From Escherichia phage HY02, in the sequence record KM092515: DNA of 64,000 nucleotides; one strand, given 5' to 3'. Shown one piece after another: positions 4,904 through 30,165 of this stretch (the stretch's first letter is position 1; each line of letters begins with the position of its first letter). Made by a program: the position numbers and the translations under genes. The notes under the pieces are model-generated. The model had not been told where the DNA came from and did not search any database. It was given only the letters and a program-made list of their open reading frames with translations.

Positions 4904-5379
4904 GAGAAGAACTTATGAACAATATCATTACGGTAGCACTGGACGATACGGCAAACAAATCTGAAGTAGTTCGTAAAATGATTCAAGGTAACTTTGAAGG
5001 TAAAATTTTCCGTGCTGTTAATGTAAAAGCTGATGGCAGCATTCGTGAATATCGTGCATTGTTGAATGTTAAGAAGCACGTAAAAGGTGCTGGTTCAACG
5101 ACTGCACACAAAGAAAACCTGATGACTATCTATGATATGGGTAAGGCTTCAGAGTTAGGTGCTGAGGGTATCGTTAAAGAAGGTGCTCCGTATCGCTCTT
5201 TCAATCTGGAAACTACTCTTATGCTTTCCTTTACAAGTGGCTCTAAAACAATCACTTATCTCTTTACTGATGCTGCAACGGTATCTGCTATTAAGGATAG
5301 CACTATCAAAGCTGGCGTAGTTGCTGCTGCAAAAGCCTCTTCGATGGCTGCGAATATCCTTGCTAAAGTCCTCGGTTAA
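4900..5379 (+). CDS. hypothetical protein
   Basis: 159-aa ORF ending just before an intrinsic terminator. Confidence 0.5.
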   Translation: MREELMNNIITVALDDTANKSEVVRKMIQGNFEGKIFRAVNVKADGSIREYRALLNVKKHVKGAGSTTAHKENLMTIYDMGKASELGAEGIVKEGAPYRSFNLETTLMLSFTSGSKTITYLFTDAATVSAIKDSTIKAGVVAAAKASSMAANILAKVLG

Positions 5380-5389
5380 GGTTAAGATA

Positions 5390-5414
5390 CAGGCTCCTTC
5401 GGGAGCCTTTTTCA
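5390..5414 (+). terminator. intrinsic terminator
   Basis: AGGCTCC-TTCG-GGAGCCT hairpin followed by TTTTTC. Confidence 0.7.
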
Positions 5415-5431
5415 TTTCAGGAGATTTCTAA

Positions 5432-5779
5432 ATGACATTTAAAGAGTTCTGTCAAGCCACTTTCATAATTGTTTTCTTAGTTGGGGCGGGTGTCTGGGGA
5501 GGATACTCTTACAGAGACTACCAAGTTGCTGAAGCTGAGTTAAGCAATGAGAAGCTAATAAGTGTTGCTAAAGATGCTTATCAGGAAGGATTAGTTACAC
5601 TGAGCACCAATTACAAAAATGATTTGAAAGATGTGCTTGCTAAGAATAAGCACACAAAAGAGGTACTAACATATGAAAAAACTAAGCCAGAGTTTTATAA
5701 TGTTTGTGTTACTGATAATTATGTCAGGGTGTTCAACGAACAAAGTGAGCAGTACATTCAAAAACTCCCAAGTAAGTGA
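5432..5779 (+). CDS. membrane protein, i-spanin-like (N-terminal TM helix, periplasmic helical domain)
   Basis: hydrophobic segment FIIVFLVGAGVWGGYSY then charged helical region; a lipoprotein ORF overlaps its 3' end in another frame. Confidence 0.4.
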   Translation: MTFKEFCQATFIIVFLVGAGVWGGYSYRDYQVAEAELSNEKLISVAKDAYQEGLVTLSTNYKNDLKDVLAKNKHTKEVLTYEKTKPEFYNVCVTDNYVRVFNEQSEQYIQKLPSK

Positions 5780-5942
5780 GAGTGATAAGTACACTCAAGA
5801 AGAATCACGGTATATCATCAAAGGCAACACAGGCAGTGATGTAGCAGCAGCACTTGAGTTCTACCGTGACGGCTTTTACCAGTGTACAATTAAAGCTAAT
5901 AACCTTATTGACATGATTTTATTAGGGAATAAGCAGCAATGA
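5673..5942 (+). CDS. putative lipoprotein, o-spanin-like
   Basis: signal peptide with lipobox IIMSGC; starts inside 5432..5779 in a different frame. Confidence 0.4.
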   Translation: MKKLSQSFIMFVLLIIMSGCSTNKVSSTFKNSQVSESDKYTQEESRYIIKGNTGSDVAAALEFYRDGFYQCTIKANNLIDMILLGNKQQ

Positions 5943-6208
5943 CAGAGAATCAAGACACTTTCTATGTAGAAGGTTACTTACTGTTACCACGACCAAAAGA
6001 AACTTATATGCGAATTGACTTCTTGCCAACCATTATGGATAATGTGATGTGTCATATCTTTATGCAAGGTGTCACAGCACAGCTTAAGCATGTTGGTAAA
6101 GAGTGCAAAATAAAGGTTGACACTCATCCAGAAATCAAAGAGAATCACTACACATGGTTCTTACCAGATTCTAAAGAAATCTTAGCAGTTCTTAAAACGA
6201 GGAAATGA
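5939..6208 (+). CDS. hypothetical protein
   Basis: 89-aa ORF, start overlaps upstream stop. Confidence 0.45.
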   Translation: MTENQDTFYVEGYLLLPRPKETYMRIDFLPTIMDNVMCHIFMQGVTAQLKHVGKECKIKVDTHPEIKENHYTWFLPDSKEILAVLKTRK

Positions 6209-6519
6209 TTATGCAATTCCAGCCAACAAATCGTGGATTTTCTTATGCAGAATTTAAAGATGCTAAAGGGGAAATTTGTACTTTACAAGAAAGTTCATCA
6301 TACGAACCATGTATCTGGTTAGGTGCTAAAGAGGTCTCTGTTCAGTACCTAGATAATGGCTGGAAAACACTTGATATACCAGCATTAGTTGGTAAAGATT
6401 TTGTAGGTAATCAAAGAATGAAGCTCAATCAAGAACAGGTAAAAGAGTTGTTGCCGTACCTCCAATACTTTGCTGAAAATGGTGAATTACCAACAGAGGA
6501 ACTTACAAATGCAGATTAA
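6205..6519 (+). CDS. hypothetical protein
   Basis: 104-aa ORF, start overlaps upstream stop. Confidence 0.45.
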   Translation: MIMQFQPTNRGFSYAEFKDAKGEICTLQESSSYEPCIWLGAKEVSVQYLDNGWKTLDIPALVGKDFVGNQRMKLNQEQVKELLPYLQYFAENGELPTEELTNAD

Positions 6520-6835
6520 TGGAAGAGACTTTGTAGCCGTTTACTACGAGAAAGGTAAAGAAGTTGGTGTAGCACAAGTATCTTATGGCAATGGTAAGTG
6601 GCTATATGGAACAATCGCAGTAGTAGGGACAAGAAGTGATACAAAAACTTTTAAAGATTGTGTTGACCTTCTTGAAGAATCCATCCAGAATCATTGGTGT
6701 CTGATATGGATGACTGATAACGAAGTGATGGAGCGTTTCAAAAAGATTGATATCAACATTGACAGTATCGAGCATGTTGATTTATATGAGCTAACTGAGA
6801 AGGTAAACTATGAAAGTAATACTAGCCAGAGATAA
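6509..6835 (+). CDS. hypothetical protein
   Basis: ORF track start is 6470; internal ATG at 6509 abuts the upstream stop and is the more likely start. Confidence 0.4.
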   Translation: MQINGRDFVAVYYEKGKEVGVAQVSYGNGKWLYGTIAVVGTRSDTKTFKDCVDLLEESIQNHWCLIWMTDNEVMERFKKIDINIDSIEHVDLYELTEKVNYESNTSQR

Positions 6836-7043
6836 AAAGACCCGTAAAATTGTAAGTTCAGCAGTATTCATAGGGAGAGATGAAGTCATCCCGTTTGCAG
6901 GAGAAGATGTGTTAACTTACAAGAAGGTGATGAAACGTGAGTTCAGTAACCGTTTCCGTGACTTCTTCTCTGAACCATTGGAAGACTTTAAAAGTCGTTG
7001 TGGTAAAGGCATCATCATTCAAGAGGCAATTATTCATGGCTGA
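6810..7043 (+). CDS. hypothetical protein
   Basis: 77-aa ORF in a chain of coupled small genes. Confidence 0.4.
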   Translation: MKVILARDKKTRKIVSSAVFIGRDEVIPFAGEDVLTYKKVMKREFSNRFRDFFSEPLEDFKSRCGKGIIIQEAIIHG

Positions 7044-23306: not shown

Positions 23307-23678
23307 ATGAAAAACAGAACAAACAAAGGCCAGTTTAAAAAAGGCCAATCTGGAAACCCATCTGGAAGACCAAAAGGCTCTCGTAACAAAAGCTCACTTG
23401 TAAAAGCTCAACTGACCATTGATAATTCTGCTGAGTTTGCTGCAAAGCTGTTTGAGGCAATTGTTACAAGGGACGCTGCTAAGCTTGCAGAGTTCGGGTT
23501 AAACACAGACGACGTAACCATCAAGAGTATGATTGAGGTCGGTAAAACTATCTTTACTCACTCAGCAGGTGAGATGAAAGCACTTGCAGCAGACACTAAG
23601 AAGACTCCTGATAATGGTGGTCAACCACAGACAGATAACAAACCAACGTTCTCTGCTGTAGCGACTCTCAAAAAATAA
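23307..23678 (+). CDS. hypothetical protein with GNPSGRPKG motif
   Basis: N-terminal KKGQSGNPSGRPKGSRNK basic motif. Confidence 0.5.
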   Translation: MKNRTNKGQFKKGQSGNPSGRPKGSRNKSSLVKAQLTIDNSAEFAAKLFEAIVTRDAAKLAEFGLNTDDVTIKSMIEVGKTIFTHSAGEMKALAADTKKTPDNGGQPQTDNKPTFSAVATLKK

Positions 23679-25175: not shown

Positions 25176-25193
25176 AAAGTTTTAAAAAGGGTA

Positions 25194-25222
25194 TTGACAA
25201 TGTGTTTGATACCCTTTAATAT
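25194..25222 (+). promoter_or_regulatory. sigma70-like promoter upstream of the tRNA cluster
   Basis: TTGACA, 17-bp spacer, TAATAT; overlaps an inverted repeat AAGGGTAT...ATACCCTT. Confidence 0.5.
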
Positions 25223-25284: not shown

Positions 25285-25313
25285 TTGACAACCACTAAAA
25301 AATAATGTTAAAG
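25285..25313 (+). promoter_or_regulatory. sigma70-like promoter upstream of the tRNA cluster
   Basis: TTGACA, 17-bp spacer, TTAAAG. Confidence 0.4.
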
Positions 25314-25340
25314 TGGTTACATAGAGTTTGAAAAGTTTAT

Positions 25341-25417
25341 CTCTGTTTAGCTCAGCTTGGTAGAGCGTTCCGTTTGGGGCGGTAAGGCCGGAGGTTCAAG
25401 TCCTCCAACAGAGACCA
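25341..25417 (+). tRNA. tRNA-Pro (UGG)
   Basis: acceptor CTCTGTT/AACAGAG, T-arm GGAGG-TTCAAGT-CCTCC, encoded CCA; anticodon loop TTTGGGG. Confidence 0.55.
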
Positions 25418-25424
25418 AATTAAT

Positions 25425-25502
25425 GTTCCAGTAGACAAAATGGTATAGTCACCACTCTTTCAAAGTGGATATTTGAGGGTTCAAATCCATTCTGGAACGC
25501 CA
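25425..25502 (+). tRNA. tRNA-Glu (UUC)
   Basis: acceptor GTTCCAG/CTGGAAC, anticodon arm CCACT-CTTTCAA-AGTGG, TTCAAAT T-loop with imperfect T-stem. Confidence 0.5.
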
Positions 25503-25509
25503 GTTTTGA

Positions 25510-25582
25510 CAGAAGACCAATTACAGCAAACTTAATCTTATTCATCTGAAGGTAAATCGGACAAAGAAGAGATTTGGTCTGG
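25510..25582 (+). ncRNA. Y-RNA-like element 1 (stem-closed, no tRNA-like domain)
   Basis: 5' CAGAAGACC-AATT...ACAGCAAA and 3' ATTT-GGTCTGG can pair as a terminal stem. Confidence 0.4.
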
Positions 25583-25593
25583 TCATTAAGAAT

Positions 25594-25670
25594 TGCGGGT
25601 ATAGAGAAAGGGCGTCTCACATGTCTCATTAGCATGGTATCGGCAGGTTCGACTCCTGCACCCGCCTCCA
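25594..25670 (+). tRNA. tRNA with CAU anticodon (Met or Ile2), atypical D region
   Basis: T-arm GCAGG-TTCGACT-CCTGC, acceptor TGCGGGT/ACCCGCC with 1-72 mismatch, anticodon arm CATGT-CTCATTA-GCATG, encoded CCA. Confidence 0.4.
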
Positions 25671-25676
25671 ATTTTG

Positions 25677-25736
25677 CAGAAGACCGTATTCAGCAATAAA
25701 CTACTTTTTGCGGATAAAAGAAAAAACACGGTCTGG
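25677..25736 (+). ncRNA. Y-RNA-like element 2
   Basis: 5' CAGAAGACC-GTAT...TCAGCAA and 3' ACAC-GGTCTGG; stem bases co-vary relative to element 1. Confidence 0.4.
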
Positions 25737-25747
25737 CAACGTATTAA

Positions 25748-25821
25748 GGTTAGGAAGCACATGAGGTATGTGCGGTCGCCTGTTAAGCGAATGGCACAGG
25801 GTTCGAATCCCTGACTAACCG
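25748..25821 (+). tRNA. tRNA-Asn (GUU)
   Basis: acceptor GGTTAGG/ACTAACC, D-arm GCAC..GTGC, anticodon loop CTGTTAA, T-arm CAGGG-TTCGAAT-CCCTG. Confidence 0.6.
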
Positions 25822-25832
25822 CAAATTTAAAT

Positions 25833-25920
25833 GTGTCGTTATCCCGTAGATGGTAGCGGTGGGGACTGTAAATCCCTTGTCATTGAGACTCGGTAGGTTC
25901 GACTCCTACACGGCACACCA
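25833..25920 (+). tRNA. tRNA-Tyr (GUA), long variable arm
   Basis: acceptor GTGTCGT/ACGGCAC, anticodon arm GGGGA-CTGTAAA-TCCCT, T-arm GTAGG-TTCGACT-CCTAC, encoded CCA. Confidence 0.6.
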
Positions 25921-25981
25921 ATTTTGAGAGGGCTATTTAGCCCCTCCCTTAAAGGGTTCTTACGAGTATCCTTTAAAGGAG

Positions 25982-26054
25982 CAGAAGACCAAATACAGCA
26001 AGTTATTTAAAATTTCAAGCCAATTCAATTTTGAAAATTTAAAACTTGGTCTGG
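25982..26054 (+). ncRNA. Y-RNA-like element 3 (YrlB-like, no tRNA-like domain)
   Basis: 5' CAGAAGACC-AAAT...ACAGCAAG and 3' CTT-GGTCTGG; interior holds an AT-rich palindrome. Confidence 0.4.
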
Positions 26055-26067
26055 CTCAACAAATTTA

Positions 26068-26199
26068 CAGAAGACCGTTTACAGCAAAACTTAAACAATC
26101 TATTTCTCCGGTAAAGAAAAGGCGAAGGTTCGATTCCTTCACTCGGCAGATGTCGAGTTGGTGTAATGGTAGCACTTAAGATGATAAACAACGGTCTGG
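26068..26199 (+). ncRNA. Y-RNA-like element 4 (YrlA-like) with permuted tRNA-like domain
   Basis: terminal stem AGACCGTT/AACGGTCT; internally T-arm GAAGG-TTCGATT-CCTTC (26124-26140), acceptor-like helix ACTCGGC/GTCGAGT capped by AGAT (26141-26158), D-arm GTGT-AATGGTA-GCAC (26161-26175); T-arm precedes D-arm. Confidence 0.55.
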
Positions 26200-26204
26200 T
26201 AATT

Positions 26205-26339
26205 ATCTTTGTAGATAAGTTATTAAGCTTACCTGTGAGTATGCGACCACAAAGGTGAAAGGGTAAATTCTAGATTTAAACCCAAAAAGACACATCGCTA
26301 CAGACCTTAAGCAAGTCTGGGTAGCTTATCTACAAAGAT
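26205..26339 (+). repeat. structured element closed by a perfect 15-bp inverted repeat
   Basis: ATCTTTGTAGATAAG (26205-26219) and CTTATCTACAAAGAT (26325-26339) flank about 105 nt containing hairpin CAGAC-CTTAAGCAA-GTCTG. Confidence 0.5.
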
Positions 26340-26347
26340 AATTTAAT

Positions 26348-26423
26348 GGAAGTGTAGCAGAATGGTGATGCGGCAGACTTTTAATCTGACAGGCGATGGG
26401 TTCGAATCCCTCCACTTCTACCA
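26348..26423 (+). tRNA. tRNA-Lys (UUU)
   Basis: acceptor GGAAGTG/CACTTCT, anticodon stem CAGA/TCTG with loop CTTTTAA, encoded CCA; T-stem has two mismatches shared with the CUU paralogue. Confidence 0.5.
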
Positions 26424-26427
26424 ATAT

Positions 26428-26504
26428 GGTTCAGTCGCAGATAAGGTAATGCAAGGGTCTCATAAGCCCTATGAATGTGGGTTCGATTCCCATCTGAACC
26501 TCCA
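26428..26504 (+). tRNA. tRNA-Met (CAU)
   Basis: acceptor GGTTCAG/CTGAACC, anticodon arm AGGGT-CTCATAA-GCCCT, T-arm GTGGG-TTCGATT-CCCAT, encoded CCA. Confidence 0.65.
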
Positions 26505-26505
26505 A

Positions 26506-26581
26506 GCTGGTATAGTTAAGAAGGTTATAACACTCCCCTGATAAGGGAACATCGGTGGTTCGATTCCACCTACCAGTACCA
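26506..26581 (+). tRNA. tRNA-Ile (GAU)
   Basis: acceptor GCTGGTA/TACCAGT, D-arm GTTA..TAAC, anticodon loop CTGATAA, T-arm GGTGG-TTCGATT-CCACC, encoded CCA. Confidence 0.65.
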
Positions 26582-26596
26582 ATTTCAATAAAGTTG

Positions 26597-26625
26597 TTGA
26601 CATTGAGATGTGACTACTTTATAGT
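26597..26625 (+). promoter_or_regulatory. internal sigma70-like promoter within the tRNA cluster
   Basis: TTGACA, 17-bp spacer, TATAGT. Confidence 0.5.
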
Positions 26626-26828
26626 AACCTTAGTTTTCGTTGCGTAGCGTCTATTTTGCAAATTTAAAATAAATGCAAACGACAATGTTTTTCTGGCAGT
26701 AGCTTGATAGGCTAAACACCAGTGAGGTCTTCCAATCCCTCATCAAAGAATTTGGCGTACTCGCCCACGGTATGATTAATAAGGTGGGCATCTTTAAGGG
26801 CTTTCTAAGAGAGTCTTTAAAGATTAAT

Positions 26829-26905
26829 GCACCCTTAGTTCAATTGGATAGAGCAACGGTCTTCTAAATCGTTAGTTACAGGTTCGAATCCTGTAGGGTG
26901 TGCCA
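26829..26905 (+). tRNA. tRNA-Arg (UCU)
   Basis: acceptor GCACCCT/AGGGTGT, anticodon arm ACGGT-CTTCTAA-ATCGT, T-arm ACAGG-TTCGAAT-CCTGT, encoded CCA. Confidence 0.65.
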
Positions 26906-27047
26906 ATTAGTTAGCAGATTACTTAGACGACCTAAGCGGGTCTTCCTGTAGGGAGGTGGTCTGTATCTCATGTTTTCCAGAACATGTAAATAATCTGAGA
27001 AGGGGCTTTACAGTGTTGAGATAATACGGTAAGCTTCGAATTATAGT

Positions 27048-27130
27048 ATGGGACGATGTTAAGACTCTAAGGCATGAGCAACGGCCTCCAAAACCGTTTC
27101 AAAGGGGTTCAACTCCTCCGTCCCATGCCA
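27048..27130 (+). tRNA. tRNA-like gene, possibly Trp (CCA); oversized D region
   Basis: acceptor ATGGGAC/GTCCCAT, T-loop TTCAACT, anticodon-like loop CTCCAAA, encoded CCA; 83 nt and D-arm not foldable by eye. Confidence 0.35.
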
Positions 27131-27143
27131 AAGTCTTATTAGG

Positions 27144-27231
27144 GGTAGGTAGCGGCTAATGGTAGCCAAACTGTCTTGAAAACAGTTGCCACTGTAGAGA
27201 TACGGTGAGGGTTCGACTCCTTTACTTACCG
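27144..27231 (+). tRNA. tRNA-Ser (UGA), long variable arm
   Basis: acceptor GGTAGGT/ACTTACC, D-stem GGC/GCC, anticodon arm AACTGT-CTTGAAA-ACAGTT, T-loop TTCGACT. Confidence 0.55.
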
Positions 27232-27489
27232 CCTAATAAGATTTTAAAGCCAAGCTTCATTCGGATGTTGCTTTGGTATCCCTCGTGTATTGTCGTACAC
27301 ACTGATAAAACACCTAGTAGGTGTCACGGAGAAGAGATAATATCAAGCTCTCCAAAGGTTCTAGTCACCGGATTAAACAAGACTATGCAAAGGCCTTTTT
27401 AGGTCTTTTTAGAGGGCTTCTAAGGTTATTACGGCTTGTTGTGGAACCTTGTTGCTTAGGTTCTTAGAAGTTCTCTAAAAAGATTTAAT

Positions 27490-27567
27490 GGGAGATTGAC
27501 GGTAATTGGTAAACCTACCATCCTTAGAAGTTGGTGTTTGAGGGTTCGAATCCCTTGTCTCCCACCA
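27490..27567 (+). tRNA. tRNA with UAG anticodon (Leu-type) but short variable arm
   Basis: acceptor GGGAGAT/GTCTCCC, T-arm GAGGG-TTCGAAT-CCCTT, anticodon loop CTTAGAA, encoded CCA. Confidence 0.4.
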
Positions 27568-27574
27568 AATTAAT

Positions 27575-27650
27575 GCAGGTGTAGCAAAATGGTTATGCGG
27601 CTGACTCTTAATCAGTAAGACGATGGGTTCAATTCCCTCCACCTGTACCA
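27575..27650 (+). tRNA. tRNA-Lys (CUU)
   Basis: acceptor GCAGGTG/CACCTGT, anticodon stem CTGA/TCAG with loop CTCTTAA, encoded CCA; body paralogous to 26348-26423. Confidence 0.5.
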
Positions 27651-27656
27651 AACAAT

Positions 27657-27732
27657 GGGGTCATAGTTTATATGGTTAAAATTCGAGTTTTGCAAACTTG
27701 GGAACTGAGTTCAATTCTCAGTGACTCCACCA
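27657..27732 (+). tRNA. tRNA-Ala (UGC)
   Basis: acceptor GGGGTCA/TGACTCC, anticodon loop TTTGCAA, T-arm CTGAG-TTCAATT-CTCAG, encoded CCA. Confidence 0.6.
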
Positions 27733-27738
27733 ATTAGT

Positions 27739-27813
27739 GCATCCATAGTTTAAACGGGAAAATTACAGTCTTCCAAACTGAGGTTGAGGGTTCGATTCCC
27801 TCTGGATGCTCCA
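27739..27813 (+). tRNA. tRNA-Gly (UCC)
   Basis: acceptor GCATCCA/TGGATGC, anticodon stem CAGT/ACTG with loop CTTCCAA, T-arm GAGGG-TTCGATT-CCCTC, encoded CCA. Confidence 0.65.
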
Positions 27814-27820
27814 AATTAAT

Positions 27821-27896
27821 GCTCCTATCGTATAATTGGCTATTACGGTTGCCTTGTAAGCAACTTATCAGGGTTCGAATCCTTGTGGGAGCACCA
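27821..27896 (+). tRNA. tRNA-Thr (UGU)
   Basis: acceptor GCTCCTA/TGGGAGC, anticodon arm GTTGC-CTTGTAA-GCAAC, T-arm CAGGG-TTCGAAT-CCTTG, encoded CCA. Confidence 0.7.
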
Positions 27897-27993
27897 ATTT
27901 AGAGGTCAAGTGAAAGACCGCTTTGAGTCAACTGAAGACCGTAACAAATTCCACGGAGTTGAGTTAGCGGCACAACTTCAGACCTCTTTTCAC

Positions 27994-28068
27994 ACTCGCT
28001 TAGTTTATATGGTAAAACATCACCCTTACAAGATGAAGAAAAAGGTTCAAGTCCTTTAGTGAGTACCA
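27994..28068 (+). tRNA. tRNA-Val (UAC)
   Basis: acceptor ACTCGCT/AGTGAGT, anticodon loop CTTACAA, T-arm AAAGG-TTCAAGT-CCTTT, encoded CCA. Confidence 0.6.
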
Positions 28069-28069
28069 T

Positions 28070-28147
28070 GTTCCAGTATCCCAATTGGCAGAGGATGCAA
28101 GCTCAAACCTTGTACTAGTGACGGTTCGAATCCGTCTTGGAACACCA
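28070..28147 (+). tRNA. tRNA with CAA anticodon (Leu-type) but short variable arm
   Basis: acceptor GTTCCAG/TTGGAAC, anticodon arm GCAAG-CTCAAAC-CTTGT, T-arm GACGG-TTCGAAT-CCGTC, encoded CCA. Confidence 0.45.
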
Positions 28148-28152
28148 ATTTT

Positions 28153-28228
28153 GCAGGATTAGTTCAAATGGATAGAGCAACAGTCTACGAAGCTGTTAAT
28201 AGGGGTTCGAATCCCTTATCCTGCGCCA
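28153..28228 (+). tRNA. tRNA-Arg (ACG)
   Basis: acceptor GCAGGAT/ATCCTGC, anticodon arm ACAGT-CTACGAA-GCTGT, T-arm AGGGG-TTCGAAT-CCCTT, encoded CCA. Confidence 0.65.
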
Positions 28229-28247
28229 ATTTAAAGAGGCTATTTAA

Positions 28248-28805
28248 ATGAGATACTTGAAGTATGCTTCATGGATTTTCTTAGCTTTGCTAGAACCATT
28301 GGCAGCAATCTTAGCAGTTATCTTAGCACCTTTTGTAGTTCCATTTTACAGTGAGAAGAAAGGACACTTACCTTTTGGATTCAGATGGATGGAGACATAT
28401 GACAACCTGATTGATGGTGATGAAGGTCACGTTAAAAGATGGGCTAAGATTAGAAAGATTGGTAAGCTTGGTGTCTATTTGCAGAGAGTTGGATGGCTCT
28501 GGAGAAACAAAGCTTATAACTTCTCTTACCATGTGTTAGGAAGAGATGTAAAAGATGTTACTAAGTGGAAAGGTAATATCAACGTAAGTTCTGACCCTGA
28601 AGATAATCAGACAGGTTATCTCCTAATGTGGAACAGTAATGCTTGGGGATTATTCGCTTTTATCCCATCAATTAAAGTCTTTGGTAAACAATTCTACTGG
28701 AGAATTTATGTTGGATGGAAGCTAAAAAGTGTTGTCCCAGAAGAAAGAGCATTCTCAAGGGAAAGAGTTATGTTGGCATTCTTTATTCATCCACTGAGAA
28801 AGTAA
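28248..28805 (+). CDS. hypothetical membrane protein embedded in the tRNA cluster
   Basis: 185-aa ORF with N-terminal hydrophobic helix (IFLALLEPLAAILAVILAPFVVPF); lies between tRNA-Arg and tRNA-Gln. Confidence 0.5.
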   Translation: MRYLKYASWIFLALLEPLAAILAVILAPFVVPFYSEKKGHLPFGFRWMETYDNLIDGDEGHVKRWAKIRKIGKLGVYLQRVGWLWRNKAYNFSYHVLGRDVKDVTKWKGNINVSSDPEDNQTGYLLMWNSNAWGLFAFIPSIKVFGKQFYWRIYVGWKLKSVVPEERAFSRERVMLAFFIHPLRK

Positions 28806-28813
28806 AGATTTAA

Positions 28814-28889
28814 AGGGGATTAGTTTACAAGGTTAAAACCTCGGTCTTTGAAATCGAAGAAGTTGGTTCAATTCCAACATCCCCCGCCA
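28814..28889 (+). tRNA. tRNA-Gln (UUG)
   Basis: acceptor AGGGGAT/ATCCCCC with unpaired 1-72, D-arm GTTT..AAAC, anticodon arm TCGGT-CTTTGAA-ATCGA, T-arm GTTGG-TTCAATT-CCAAC, encoded CCA. Confidence 0.65.
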
Positions 28890-28891
28890 AT

Positions 28892-28970
28892 GCTCCATTA
28901 CTCCAATTGGCAGAGAGGCCAGACTTAAAATCTGTGTTATGTATCGGTTCGAATCCGATATGGAGTACCA
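28892..28970 (+). tRNA. tRNA with UAA anticodon (Leu-type), atypical architecture
   Basis: acceptor GCTCCAT/ATGGAGT (alternative TACTCCA/TGGAGTA), anticodon stem CAGA/TCTG with loop CTTAAAA, T-arm ATCGG-TTCGAAT-CCGAT, encoded CCA. Confidence 0.45.
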
Positions 28971-28975
28971 AATTT

Positions 28976-29051
28976 AGCGGTATAGCATAACTGGCAATGC
29001 AGCAGTCTCTGAAGCTGTCTTATTAAGGTTCAAATCCTTATGCCGCTGCCA
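28976..29051 (+). tRNA. tRNA-Gln (CUG)
   Basis: acceptor AGCGGTA/TGCCGCT (A1-U72), D-arm GCAT..ATGC, anticodon arm GCAGT-CTCTGAA-GCTGT, T-arm TAAGG-TTCAAAT-CCTTA, encoded CCA. Confidence 0.55.
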
Positions 29052-29082
29052 CTTCTAAGGATTCTTACGAGAGTCCTTAGAA

Positions 29083-29158
29083 GTGGCCTTATCATAAATG
29101 GTAATGACCCATGCTGTGAACATGGTCTATACGGGTTCAAATCCCGTAGGTCACCCCA
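29083..29158 (+). tRNA. tRNA-His (GUG)
   Basis: acceptor GTGGCCT/AGGTCAC, anticodon arm CCATG-CTGTGAA-CATGG, T-arm ACGGG-TTCAAAT-CCCGT, encoded CCA. Confidence 0.7.
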
Positions 29159-29163
29159 ATTTA

Positions 29164-29240
29164 TAGTCCAAGTAGCTTATATGGTTAAAGCGCGTGTCTG
29201 AAAAACATGAGAAGAGGGTTCAAATCCCACTGGACTACCA
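29164..29240 (+). tRNA. tRNA-Phe (GAA)
   Basis: acceptor TAGTCCA/TGGACTA, D-stem GCTT/AAGC, anticodon arm CGTGT-CTGAAAA-ACATG, TTCAAAT T-loop; spacing between acceptor and D-stem is non-canonical. Confidence 0.5.
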
Positions 29241-29256
29241 ATTTCAAAGGTGCTTA

Positions 29257-29991
29257 ATGAAAGAGATGACAGAACAAGGTAAGGAGATTTTTAATCTCTT
29301 AAAAACTGGTAAAGGGTTTTCTAACCCCCTTATTACTGGTGCAGCAGTTCTCGGTGGAACCGTAGCTGCCTCTACATCACTTGTAAGCTCTATTAGCTCT
29401 GTATCAGACCCTACAGTAAAGGATAAGCTTGTTGCTGCTGGACTTACAACAGTTCTGCTTAACAGCTTTACCACGAGTCTGACAAGCACTACATCAACTA
29501 CCAAAACACTAACAGATTACGGTCAAAAGTCCATTGATGAGTTTTCATCACGTATGCAGGTAGCAAAAGGTTACTCTAATGTTATGGGTGCAGCAGGTGA
29601 ACAAGTTGGCTGTACACCATTTAGTGGTATTATGGGTGTTGCTACAGAGTATGGTCAAAAAGCTATTGATACGATTAACAGTGCACTAGATAGTGTTAAT
29701 GGTGTGTTAAGTGACTTACAAGATGCTATTGACAAAGGTCTTGATACTATTTCTGATTTAGCTGAGCAAGCTGTTAGTAAGATTAATGAAGGTATTTCAA
29801 AAATTACAGCTTATGCAGATGAAGTTGTGCAGATGATTGAAGAAGAAGCTGCTCTTATTGCAGAGTACCTTAAAACGAATATCAATGGGTTCTTAGCAGG
29901 TATCTTACCAGACTGGTTTGATGATGCTTGTAAAACTGGTGTGATTGACACTATTGCAACACCAGAAATGAAGAACGCATTACAGAAATAA
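29257..29991 (+). CDS. hypothetical Ser/Thr-rich protein
   Basis: ORF track start 29194 overlaps tRNA-Phe; in-frame ATG at 29257 follows GGTGCTTA, the same context as the terminase start. Confidence 0.5.
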   Translation: MKEMTEQGKEIFNLLKTGKGFSNPLITGAAVLGGTVAASTSLVSSISSVSDPTVKDKLVAAGLTTVLLNSFTTSLTSTTSTTKTLTDYGQKSIDEFSSRMQVAKGYSNVMGAAGEQVGCTPFSGIMGVATEYGQKAIDTINSALDSVNGVLSDLQDAIDKGLDTISDLAEQAVSKINEGISKITAYADEVVQMIEEEAALIAEYLKTNINGFLAGILPDWFDDACKTGVIDTIATPEMKNALQK

Positions 29992-29992
29992 T

Positions 29993-30085
29993 GGAAGATT
30001 AACCCTAAAAGGTAAGGGAGCAGTTTGCTAAACTGCCAGTAGCTGAGAAATCGGTGTACCAGTTCAAGTCTGGTATCTTCCTCCA
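29993..30085 (+). tRNA. tRNA-Ser (GCU), long variable arm
   Basis: acceptor GGAAGAT/ATCTTCC, D-stem CCC/GGG, anticodon arm GCAGT-TTGCTAA-ACTGC, T-arm ACCAG-TTCAAGT-CTGGT, encoded CCA. Confidence 0.65.
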
Positions 30086-30089
30086 ATTT

Positions 30090-30165
30090 GAATCCGTGAC
30101 AGAAATGGCTATGTGCCTGTCTGCAAAACAGGTTTATAAGGGTTCGAGTCCCTTCGGATTCTCCA
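30090..30165 (+). tRNA. tRNA-Cys (GCA)
   Basis: acceptor GAATCCG/CGGATTC, anticodon arm CCTGT-CTGCAAA-ACAGG, T-arm AAGGG-TTCGAGT-CCCTT, encoded CCA. Confidence 0.65.

Follow-up and report, generated by a model that had tools for sequence, protein, structure and literature searches.

The closest described relatives of the element reported here are the YrlA RNAs of bacteria and phages. In a YrlA RNA, as described by Chen et al. 2014, the recognition region at the 5' end is followed by a T arm, a closed acceptor-like stem-loop and a D arm; many of these RNAs also have a less-conserved 'V' stem-loop ahead of the T arm. The two ends pair into a stem with the Ro60 site, GNCGAAN0-1G stands near the 5' end, and the gene lies no more than ~4 kb from that of a Ro60 ortholog, in the same orientation (PMC4201824). 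YrlA is bound by Ro60 in vivo, contains pseudouridine-55 and dihydrouridine, and is acted on by tRNA enzymes. Salmonella has the tRNA-like YrlA, and a shorter YrlB that shares its Rsr-binding region; in all, YrlA RNAs were found in 254 bacteria and 22 phages, the genomes having been selected by their TROVE annotation (PMC4201824). Among phages, Ro60 of Thermus phage phiLo binds two adjacent Yrl RNAs, along with host PNPase, in a RYPER-like complex (PMC12135203). In phage Bas63, gp130, which is structurally Ro60-like and is encoded directly upstream of tRNAs, counters the Ppl defence (PhageMaP preprint, 2024, PMC11482910). The authors of the latter work raised the possibility of Y RNAs among the annotated tRNA genes of Bas63, without identifying any (PMC11482910). 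Here we describe an element, E4, that lies in a 64 000-nucleotide (nt) stretch of the DNA of Escherichia phage HY02 (record KM092515); this stretch, analysed at its full length, is referred to as the window. We consider, with a probability of roughly 0.8, that E4 is a non-coding, YrlA-class Y RNA of a divergent Ro60 family, that it is one of four paralogs (E1–E4), and that it is the probable partner of a Ro60-fold protein encoded upstream.

The window belongs to a Felixounavirus (Felix O1-like) genome, with ~97% identity to many E. coli and Salmonella phages. It contains an array of 25 tRNA genes on the + strand (25341–30165, ~4.8 kb, called by ARAGORN). E4 falls in a 427-nt gap of this array, between tRNA-Tyr, which ends at 25920, and tRNA-Lys, which starts at 26348. 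ARAGORN called no tRNA at 26066–26202 in the genomic order, all 25 tRNAs of the window being elsewhere, and an Rfam scan of the window at gathering threshold returned tRNAs only, and nothing at E4. Indeed, the T arm and the 3' acceptor strand of E4 precede its 5' acceptor strand and D arm. The original prediction, an earlier reading of the same DNA by its letters, had on this ground held that E4 is not a normal tRNA gene.

Inside a bulged terminal stem, E4 carries, in this order, an anticodon-arm-like hairpin, a T arm, a sealed acceptor helix of 7 base pairs (bp) and a D arm (Table 1). The T arm, the acceptor-like hairpin with its tetraloop, and the D arm are all present in the sequence as they had been named originally. 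Both strands of the terminal stem are present too, the 3' strand lying one nucleotide downstream of its originally assigned place (26189–26196). The long terminal stem had been taken to replace the anticodon stem; the former is there, but the anticodon-arm-like hairpin at 26103–26119 is retained as well. This fifth hairpin had been overlooked, as had three upstream paralogs, the upstream Ro60-fold gene, and an outer 3-bp helix that joins 26066–26068 to 26199–26201 across an asymmetric AGA/G internal loop. When the single sequence was folded by RNAfold, the terminal, T, acceptor and D helices were recovered, but the energy was unremarkable (z = −1.85 against shuffles). The case for E4 therefore rests on comparative data. 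A further CTTAA/TTAAG helix in the minimum free energy (MFE) fold was rejected; its pairing is lost in Suspvirus and in one Felixounavirus, and Mooglevirus has a deletion there. The corresponding part is regarded as a large internal loop.

The E3/E4 region is conserved in 251 records of the phage collection, at 79–99% identity. Sixteen distinct homologs from three Ounavirinae genera (Felixounavirus, Suspvirus-like and Mooglevirus-like) were aligned (alignment A1), and RNAalifold independently returned from them the terminal stem and the T, acceptor and D helices, plus the outer UAC/GUA helix across the AGA/G loop. With the full structure specified by hand, 97.6% of the cells of A1 were paired, compared with ~45% when the partners were slid, and the covariation score was reached by none of 500 shuffles. 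A second alignment (A4), of 14 much more diverged tRNA-like members, was fitted to the model for the pair counts and so leans toward the structure; it showed double-sided changes in 24 of the 31 pairs and 97.8% paired cells (~42% when slid), and again 0 of 500 shuffles reached the score. Every distant member also folds alone into the layout of E4.

The acceptor hairpin is rewritten from genus to genus and is still helical (ACUCGGC/GUCGAGU, ACACGU/GCGUGU, ACCCUUC/GAAGGGU): three of its seven pairs already vary within Ounavirinae, with 100% pairing, and in the diverse set all seven show double-sided changes, with 98.7% pairing. The T arm is almost invariant within Ounavirinae. In distant members the T stem covaries (CAUGG/CCAUG, GUCGG/CCGGC, GUAGG/CCUAC), double changes being seen in 3 of 5 pairs. 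Similarly, the D arm is invariant in Ounavirinae save for loop position 20, and reads GCUC-AGGGGUA-GAGC or GUUU-AAAUGGGA-AAAC in distant members. The V hairpin is 87% paired across the family, and the terminal 7–8-bp helix and the outer 3-bp helix are 100% paired and covary. Compensatory changes are thus abundant in the terminal stem and in the tRNA-like helices, where a test for covariation had been proposed originally, and the observation of E4 is confirmed.

Genes for HNH homing endonucleases are inserted nearby in some relatives, and the tRNA content varies among relatives, the window lacking a tRNA-Asp that most of them have before E3. These facts would suit a functionless remnant, made up of two tRNA pseudogene fragments or of homing-endonuclease debris. 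However, compensatory changes maintain every helix, and E4, besides being kept in the 251 records, is recognisable where the partner protein is only 30–50% identical. Moreover, the insert of E4 has an identity of 0.67–0.80 to the phage's own tRNAs, which is at the level of the background (tRNA–tRNA mean 0.63, maximum 0.82). A degraded pair of tRNA pseudogenes is thus not borne out, the insert being no closer to the tRNAs of the phage than these are among themselves, and we give a remnant hardly any weight. On the same figures, a recent origin of the insert from one of the phage's own tRNAs was also rejected.

The Rfam tRNA model aligned 26103–26140 as an anticodon arm, a variable loop and a T arm; the match was partial, with 22 bits against a gathering score of 29. 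The pieces of E4 were then put in un-permuted order: 5' acceptor strand, U8-G9, D arm, N26, hairpin 26103–26119, AGGC, T arm and 3' acceptor strand. The rejoined 70-nt insert was called by ARAGORN as tRNA-Thr(GGU), and eight of 11 family members likewise passed as tRNA, with GGU, AUG, UCA, GCU and GUU as anticodons. To judge by its sequence, the insert is a complete cloverleaf, circularly permuted at the junction of the D arm and the anticodon arm, with the acceptor ends sealed by the tetraloop. The cloverleaf shape is conserved; decoding identity is not. The anticodon-like loop has the form CU-NNN-AA in many relatives, where NNN is not conserved, and it has 6 nt in FelixO1-type sequences, while the loop in the window has C at position 33. 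Given C33 and the 6-nt loops of many Felixounavirus sequences, a decoding role is therefore unlikely.

The tRNA calls for un-permuted E4 (71 nt as called) and its eight relatives are also what speaks for a true circularly permuted tRNA gene, whose transcript would first close into a circle and later be cut open at the acceptor stem, yielding a functional tRNA. Against this stand the variation of the anticodon among close relatives, the C33 and the 6-nt loops just mentioned, and an acceptor that is sealed by 2–9 nt and has neither discriminator base nor CCA. Joining of the D arm to the anticodon arm would, in addition, leave a terminal module of ~50 nt in the tRNA core, and this module is common to RNAs that have no tRNA part. 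A gene of this kind is, in our opinion, extremely improbable.

The RNAs in question are E1, E2 and E3, which precede E4 on the same strand (Table 1). E1–E4 have a common pattern, NNC-AGA-AGACC-NN-U-N-CAGCAA ... NN-GGUCU-G-GNN. It makes up a closing module of a 3-bp outer helix, an AGA/G internal loop, a 7-bp helix AGACCNN/NNGGUCU, and a single-stranded U-N-CAGCAA after the 5' strand. The 68 distinct copies from Ounavirinae loci agree without exception in AGA, AGACC/GGUCU, the lone G and CAGCAA. Covariation is seen in the outer 3 bp (UGC/GCA, UAC/GUA, GAC/GUC, AGC/GCU, with G-U intermediates) and in the inner 2 bp of the main helix, the changes in the helices being found both between paralogs and within orthologs. 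For example, the outer helix of E2 differs between genomes in a compensatory way (UGC/GCA or UAC/GUA). The position of E1 is kept in every Ounavirinae locus examined. The string GACC-NNN-TACAGCAA has three exact copies and one with a single mismatch within 0.7 kb, and none elsewhere in the 64 kb at up to one mismatch; a motif search of the window also found GGTCTGG over-represented. Among the four, only E4 has a tRNA-like insert.

A further structured RNA, element X, lies between E4 and tRNA-Lys. Its closing stem exceeds 18 bp and shows compensatory changes between Felixounavirus and Susp-/Mooglevirus loci; inside it, the hairpin AGAC-CUUAAGCAA-GUCU-GG looks like a degenerated version of the module. 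X had no Rfam match. It may be a fifth, degenerate member of the family, its membership in the system being uncertain.

The open reading frame (ORF) that precedes the tRNA array ends ~170 nt 5' of the first tRNA, and E4 starts 891 nt 3' of its stop codon, on the same strand. Its product, of 471 amino acids (aa), was matched in Pfam by DUF2828 (2.7e-29) and DUF7788 (1.7e-43), and it belongs to PHROG 850, 'RNA-binding protein'. By sequence it had no match in the PDB at E ≤ 1 (phmmer). An AlphaFold2 model was built from 35 homologs (predicted local distance difference test, 87; predicted template modelling score, 0.87) and compared with the PDB by Foldseek. The top 10 matches were all full-length Ro60, with probability 1.0, E values of 1e-8 to 1e-6 and template modelling scores up to 0.65; below them there was a sharp fall to isolated vWA domains. 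The Ro60 matches include those of Xenopus, human, Rsr of D. radiodurans, and Ro60 of phage phiLo. The confident model and the all-Ro60 top matches, in a protein for which Pfam gives no TROVE, argue that the product is a Ro60-fold ring which TROVE-based annotation has overlooked. The family was found in 708 phage records by tblastn, and is annotated in mycobacteriophages as 'Ro-like RNA binding protein'. In the phage collection, the protein occurs at ≥ 80% identity in 249 records, compared with 251 for the E3/E4 region. By analogy with known Ro60 systems, the protein is probably the partner of the E1–E4 RNAs.

Loci of other phages were searched by a covariance model of E4 (R1) and by a scan for copies of CAGCAA that follow a helix strand with its partner 15–175 nt downstream. 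Elements of the form 'helix + CAGCAA' were found near a gene of the DUF2828/DUF7788 type, on the same strand, in ~13 sampled divergent phage lineages. These are Felixounavirus, Suspvirus, Mooglevirus, L039, L040, L041 (Yersinia phage vB_YenM_P778), the ~150-kb phages like Klebsiella KP13-16, Vibrio phi-pp2, a contig with a 40%-identical protein, AT-rich jumbo contigs, Listeria LMTA-34, Campylobacter CP81, LeBron and phiM19. The element–gene distance is ~0.05–2.7 kb in most of them. In distant phages the helix sequence changes completely and CAGCAA persists, the 3' strand being usually followed by G (UG or AG).

The related enterobacterial phage L040 (protein 56% identical) has a full E4 homolog, of 74 bits, in which compensatory changes are numerous (T stem CAUGG/CCAUG; terminal helix AGACUCU/AGAGUCU), as well as shorter members. 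The ~150-kb phages L043, L044, L045 and Klebsiella KP13-16 (46–51%) include some elements with complete T/acceptor/D inserts; L043, L045 and KP13-16 have tandem arrays of 3–5 elements within 100–200 nt 3' of the gene, and L044 has two elements 0.3–1.1 kb downstream of it. Three tandem elements lie directly 3' of the gene in mycobacteriophage LeBron (31%), three directly 5' of it in Listeria LMTA-34 (29%), and two directly 5' in Campylobacter CP81 (36%). For the Listeria phage, CAGCAA occurs only three times in 7.4 kb, both strands taken together, all three copies being in these elements. Sinorhizobium phiM19 (38%) has two module elements, one of which is also an R1 match, and a separate YrlA-core match, 1.3–2.7 kb upstream. 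Vibrio phi-pp2 (46%) has its elements within a tRNA array ~6 kb upstream of the gene, and the AT-rich jumbo contigs L035, L037 and L038 (29%) have three, ~0.1–0.3 kb upstream, past four tRNAs.

In Felixounavirus and several other phages, the elements stand between tRNA genes, a few nt from the tRNA ends, and YrlA of M. smegmatis is a substrate of RNase P (PMC4201824). The elements could be processing or punctuation signals of the tRNA operon (stem-loops and a tRNA-like decoy for cleavage by RNase P, Z, E or III, or stabilising the precursor), with no functional tie to the Ro60-like protein. However, in LeBron no tRNA is annotated within ~3 kb of the gene that the three elements follow, and in the Listeria, Campylobacter and Klebsiella phages the tandem arrays abut the gene and are not spread through a tRNA array. 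In the window itself, E1–E4 are confined to the first 0.9 kb of the 4.8-kb array of 25 tRNAs. The invariant CAGCAA and AGA/G loop also point to a specific protein site and not to a generic nuclease signal. We consider such signals a distinctly improbable account.

Alternatively, E4 may be a stand-alone decoy or sponge of tRNA shape, for instance of a tRNA-targeting defence nuclease or sensor of the host, with the stem serving for stability only. The cloverleaf of E4 is complete and conserved without its anticodon, gp130 acts against Ppl without the RNAs, and work cited in PMC11482910 connects the tRNA arrays of phages with escape from tRNA-targeting defences. A decoy leaves unexplained why the same invariant module occurs in three paralogs that have no tRNA part, and why this module tracks the Ro60-like gene across phyla. 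Without a conserved anticodon, moreover, E4 cannot be a decoy for anticodon-specific nucleases. We hold this explanation to be improbable also, and retain the reading of E4 as a Y RNA.

The comparison with YrlA supports that reading in several respects. Like YrlA, E4 has the V stem-loop, the T/acceptor/D order and paired ends, the elements following in the same order, and it lies within 4 kb of a Ro60-type gene on the same strand, the gene here being DUF2828/DUF7788, and Ro60 by fold. Its paralogs are shorter and have the putative binding region in common with it, like YrlB and YrlA of Salmonella. Diverged relatives of E4 match the Rfam model of YrlA, RF02553, over the full model, with 42.1 bits (L043), 40.9 bits (L045), 39.8 bits (LeBron) and 39.7 bits (a Klebsiella phage), at E values of 7e-8 to 2e-5. 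A positive control, the genuine YrlA beside the TROVE Ro60 (gp220) of mycobacteriophage Bxz1, scored 32.5 bits, which is below gathering; the model or its threshold is therefore narrow. The chain from E4 to R1, from R1 to the diverged relatives, and from these to RF02553 supports the assignment of E4 to the YrlA class. There are also differences. In E4, CAGCAA after a bulged helix stands instead of GNCGAAN0-1G, and the probable partner belongs to DUF2828/DUF7788 and not to TROVE. The V arm looks like an anticodon arm, the un-permuted insert passes as tRNA, and there are four to five copies within a tRNA array. In the RF02553 alignment of a relative, ACAGCAAAU is placed over acggCgaAU of YrlA, which suggests that CAGCAA corresponds in position to the motif contacted by Ro60.

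A number of points weigh against our reading of E4. E4 itself had no match to RF02553 at E ≤ 10, no member of the family reaches the gathering score of 69 bits, and GNCGAAN0-1G is absent from 26066–26202, U-N-CAGCAA being in its place. The Pfam scan of the 471-aa protein gave no TROVE at E ≤ 0.01, and a non-TROVE protein may bind RNA in a mode different from that of Ro60. In one sampled lineage, L046, no obvious element was seen within 8 kb of the gene. The Levitt pair (15–48) would be A-C or A-A in Felixounavirus, so the tertiary fold of a tRNA is not guaranteed, and the region has no more promoter matches than shuffled sequence would be expected to give. The leaning of A4 toward the structure, mentioned above, belongs here too. 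In addition, gp130 alone, from a plasmid or in T7, rescues plaquing on Ppl without Felixounavirus RNAs (PMC11482910); the RNAs are therefore not required for the one known phenotype. Finally, what is said below of the expression, ends and binding of E1–E4 is drawn from analogy, the sequence and the model. Taken together, the YrlA-like character proposed originally is upheld by the architecture, the Ro60-type neighbour and the RF02553 matches of the relatives, and not by the gathering score, the GNCGAA motif or TROVE. E4 is supported as a YrlA-class RNA, strict membership failing on the gathering score and on that motif.

Table 1. Positions of the features discussed in the text (window positions unless a locus is named)
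Feature	Position	Strand	Sequence or structure	Basis
Predicted Ro60-fold protein gene, 471 aa	23760–25175	+	HEAT-repeat ring and vWA domain	Pfam, AlphaFold2, Foldseek
Sigma-70-like promoter match, between Ro60-fold gene and first tRNA	25194–25222	+	TTGACA-17-TAATAT	Consensus scan
Sigma-70-like promoter match, between Ro60-fold gene and first tRNA	25285–25314	+	TTGACA-18-TAAAGT	Consensus scan
E1, short Y-like RNA (YrlB-like, no tRNA module)	25508–25585	+	GAC/AGA/AGACCAA + UUACAGCAA ... UUGGUCU/G/GUC	R1 match, 36.5 bits
E2, short Y-like RNA	25675–25739	+	UGC/AGA/AGACCGU + AUUCAGCAA ... ACGGUCU/G/GCA	R1 match, 40.7 bits
E3, short Y-like RNA with internal AU-rich hairpin	25980–26056	+	AGC/AGA/AGACCAA + AUACAGCAA ... 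UUGGUCU/G/GCU	
E4, tRNA-like Y RNA of YrlA class, full extent with outer helix	26066–26202	+		R1 span; A1 and A4
E4, putative recognition module, 5' half	26066–26087	+	UAC 26066–26068; loop AGA 26069–26071; helix AGACCGU(U) 26072–26079; single-stranded (U)UACAGCAA to 26087	
E4, 5' stem strand	26072–26079	+	AGACCGTT	Sequence
E4, anticodon-arm-like hairpin ('V' stem-loop)	26103–26119	+	UUUCU-CCGGUAA-AGAAA, then AGGC 'variable loop' to 26123	Rfam tRNA model alignment
E4, T arm	26124–26140	+	GAAGG-UUCGAUU-CCUUC	Sequence, RNAalifold
E4, sealed acceptor helix	26141–26158	+	3' strand ACUCGGC, tetraloop AGAU, 5' strand GUCGAGU	Sequence, pair counts
E4, U8-G9 linker	26159–26160	+	'TG'	
E4, D arm	26161–26175	+	GUGU-AAUGGUA-GCAC	A14, G18, G19, A21 equivalents present
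E4, 3' stem strand	26190–26197	+	AACGGTCT	Sequence
E4, putative recognition module, 3' half	26190–26201	+	(A)ACGGUCU 26190–26197; G 26198; outer helix GUA 26199–26201	
Element X, structured RNA, ~145 nt, between E4 and tRNA-Lys	26200–26345	+	5' end abuts outer helix of E4	MFE −46 kcal/mol
RF01414 match, L043	9552–9690			Rfam
RF01414 match, L045	9534–9670			Rfam
RF01414 match, L049	2623–2767			Rfam
RF01414 match, window (E3)	25987–26053			Rfam

Two sigma-70-like promoter matches precede the first tRNA (Table 1), the next strong match is at 26597–26625, past tRNA-Ile, and no terminator is predicted before it. The two matches are suggestive of the likely start of a transcription unit that carries E1–E4. 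With no terminator up to the third match, it would follow that E1–E4 are co-transcribed with the first eight tRNAs, and they would be released by tRNA processing. A 12-bp hairpin (25186–25217) lies directly 3' of the Ro60-fold gene and overlaps the −35 and the spacer of the first of these promoter matches, and might act as terminator and promoter at once.

By analogy with characterised Ro60–Y RNA particles, the following mechanism may be proposed. After transcription along with the tRNAs, E1–E4 would be freed when the flanking tRNAs are processed. The bulged helix with CAGCAA would be the docking site for the Ro60-like ring of the phage, and the variable interior would serve as an effector module. 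In E4, the interior would be a tRNA mimic that recruits or sequesters a tRNA-recognising host factor, such as a modification, processing or repair enzyme, or a nuclease. This factor would thus be tethered to the Ro60-like protein, or access to the protein would be gated. The ribonucleoprotein may in this way modulate RNA metabolism or host defence during infection.

Some features of the locus vary among relatives. The tRNA-Asp that is lacking in the window is found between tRNA-Tyr and E3 (25921–25979) in most relatives, for example FelixO1, H12 and Moogle, and the HNH homing-endonuclease genes sit at various points of this region in other relatives. On a larger scale, the order DUF5681, Ro60-fold gene, tRNA array with Y-like RNAs, DUF7217 and terminase (window 23307–23678 and 29194–29991) is kept in L039–L041; this synteny from DUF5681 to terminase holds where the Ro60-fold protein is only 53–63% identical. 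In the annotations inspected of GenBank relatives, none marks E1–E4 as RNA, and some put small hypothetical ORFs there. In one of them (L001, PP952733), CDS0024 and CDS0025, both 'hypothetical protein', are annotated over E3, E4 and X at 5148–5385, which corresponds to ~26030–26270 of the window. Annotations of this type are probably mis-annotated non-coding RNA. A coding reading of E3, E4 and X was rejected, the ORFs there being of ≤ 50 aa, mostly with TTG or GTG starts; the indels among homologs are not multiples of three, and the substitutions in helices are compensatory.

Other RNA-related features were noted in the distant phages. Upstream of the Ro-like gene of Listeria LMTA-34 (L049), at a distance of ~1 kb, there is a match to ROOL RNA (1428–1979; 88.5 bits, gathering 99), and ~1.3 kb downstream of the gene lies an RtcB 'tRNA splicing ligase' gene (5808–7019). 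The Ro-like gene with RtcB in its neighbourhood recalls the bacterial rsr-yrlBA-rtcBA operon. In Klebsiella KP13-16 (L051), the transfer-messenger RNA model matched 5390–5465 with 31.6 bits (gathering 47; E 3e-9; model 1–374 with a large internal gap), in the tRNA array just 3' of the Y-like RNA array; this may be another tRNA-like RNA. Odd tRNA calls near the Ro60-fold gene were seen in L043 (5817–5891 and 7231–7305) and L052 (6593–6668). They comprise one call whose 'anticodon' has 2 nt, one resembling a suppressor gene (CUA, 'tRNA-Pyl') and, in phiM19, an annotation as 'tRNA-TERM'. It may be noted that a gene for IS605 OrfB / Cas12f-like TnpB (L045, 13393–14652) lies in the tRNA region of a ~143-kb phage that has the Ro60-fold gene.

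Phages of the Felix O1 type are classics of phage typing and therapy, hundreds of their genomes have been sequenced, and in the annotations inspected these RNAs stand unannotated or under spurious small ORFs. The published guess on Y RNAs of Bas63 thus turns into concrete candidates, with CAGCAA, the AGA/G loop and the tRNA module as targets for mutation. The biology of Ro60 and Y RNAs would be extended to a large protein branch that TROVE-based searches are expected to miss, though DUF2828-type phages, such as mycobacteriophages of the cluster L type, may already be among the 22 phages with YrlA. For more than 700 phage genomes, there is now a simple signature by which partner RNAs may be sought, and the tRNA-like module, as read here, can be a complete cloverleaf in circularly permuted order.

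The short elements led to an unexpected family in Rfam. Dicty_Class_I_RNA (RF01414) was the top match for six short elements of three distant loci (25.0, 24.9, 26.8, 26.3, 23.1 and 19.6 bits), and was among the weak matches for E3 (15.2 bits), all scores being below the gathering cut-off of 41.5 bits. Class I RNAs are 42–65 nt long, with a short terminal stem, an 11-nt motif after its 5' strand and a 3' CUGU, and are reported to be unique to Dictyostelia; they have their own DUSE promoter, and the RRM protein Rnp1A is the known binder (PMC7919456). In the Rfam consensus the 11-nt motif reads CCUUACAGCAA. Reportedly, four Class I RNA-binding proteins were described by Avesson et al. in 2011. 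The Class I RNAs and the short phage elements agree in length (42–65 and ~45–80 nt), in a 6–7-bp stem that joins the ends and starts with G or A, in the single-stranded (CC)UUACAGCAA right after the 5' strand, with ACAGCAA in common, and in the 3' end ...C-UG(U). In the Listeria phage the elements have the form G-helix-UAACAGCAAUUA...helix-C-UGU. In contrast, the Class I RNAs are eukaryotic, have a promoter of their own and an RRM binder, and the likeness, with all phage scores below gathering, is known from the RNA alone. In the literature on DUF2828, on Bas63 with Ro60, and on phage Ro60, Y RNA and tRNA-like RNAs, no description of the phage RNAs was found; the DUF2828 papers concern plant genes, and the protein family is therefore present in eukaryotes also. 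The DUF2828 family of Pfam includes eukaryotic members. RNAs of the form 'helix + (U)UACAGCAA + C-UG' might serve as Y RNAs throughout the DUF2828/DUF7788 branch of the Ro60 superfamily. The Class I RNAs of dictyostelids might in turn be their eukaryotic counterpart, as Y-like RNAs of a DUF2828-type Ro60 paralog. We think this reading as a whole rather unlikely as it stands, and offer its dictyostelid part as a lead, not a finding. Should a common protein partner lie behind the likeness, a mechanism would be suggested for an orphan class of eukaryotic RNA that is abundant and developmentally regulated in dictyostelids.

Permuted tRNA genes are known in the red alga Cyanidioschyzon merolae, where they give functional tRNAs via a circular intermediate and have conserved anticodons. 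E4 resembles them in gene order, with the 3' part of the cloverleaf encoded ahead of the 5' part, and differs from them in its sealed acceptor, the lack of a conserved anticodon, and the additional, putative protein-binding module. Like the window, phage phiLo has a Ro60 ring with Y-like RNAs (Yrl1 and Yrl2) encoded directly beside it, and its Ro60 is among the best structural matches of the 471-aa protein. In phiLo, however, binding was shown experimentally, whereas here it is predicted from sequence and model; the Ro60 of phiLo is of the TROVE type, its RNAs have a CGAA motif, and both lie upstream of the gene. The text of the phiLo paper has no mention of YrlA, and mentions tRNA only in passing (PMC12135203). 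Bas63 is by taxonomy a Felixounavirus, the genus of the window phage. Its gp130 and the ORF of the window agree in genus, in position upstream of tRNAs and in the Ro60-like fold, and their equivalence is drawn from these three points alone. The proposal made for Bas63 concerned annotated tRNA genes, whereas the elements described here are unannotated and lie between the tRNA genes. Systems of Ro60 and Y RNAs are thus known; what is new here is the protein branch, the recognition motif, the multiple copies within a tRNA array, and the fully permuted cloverleaf.

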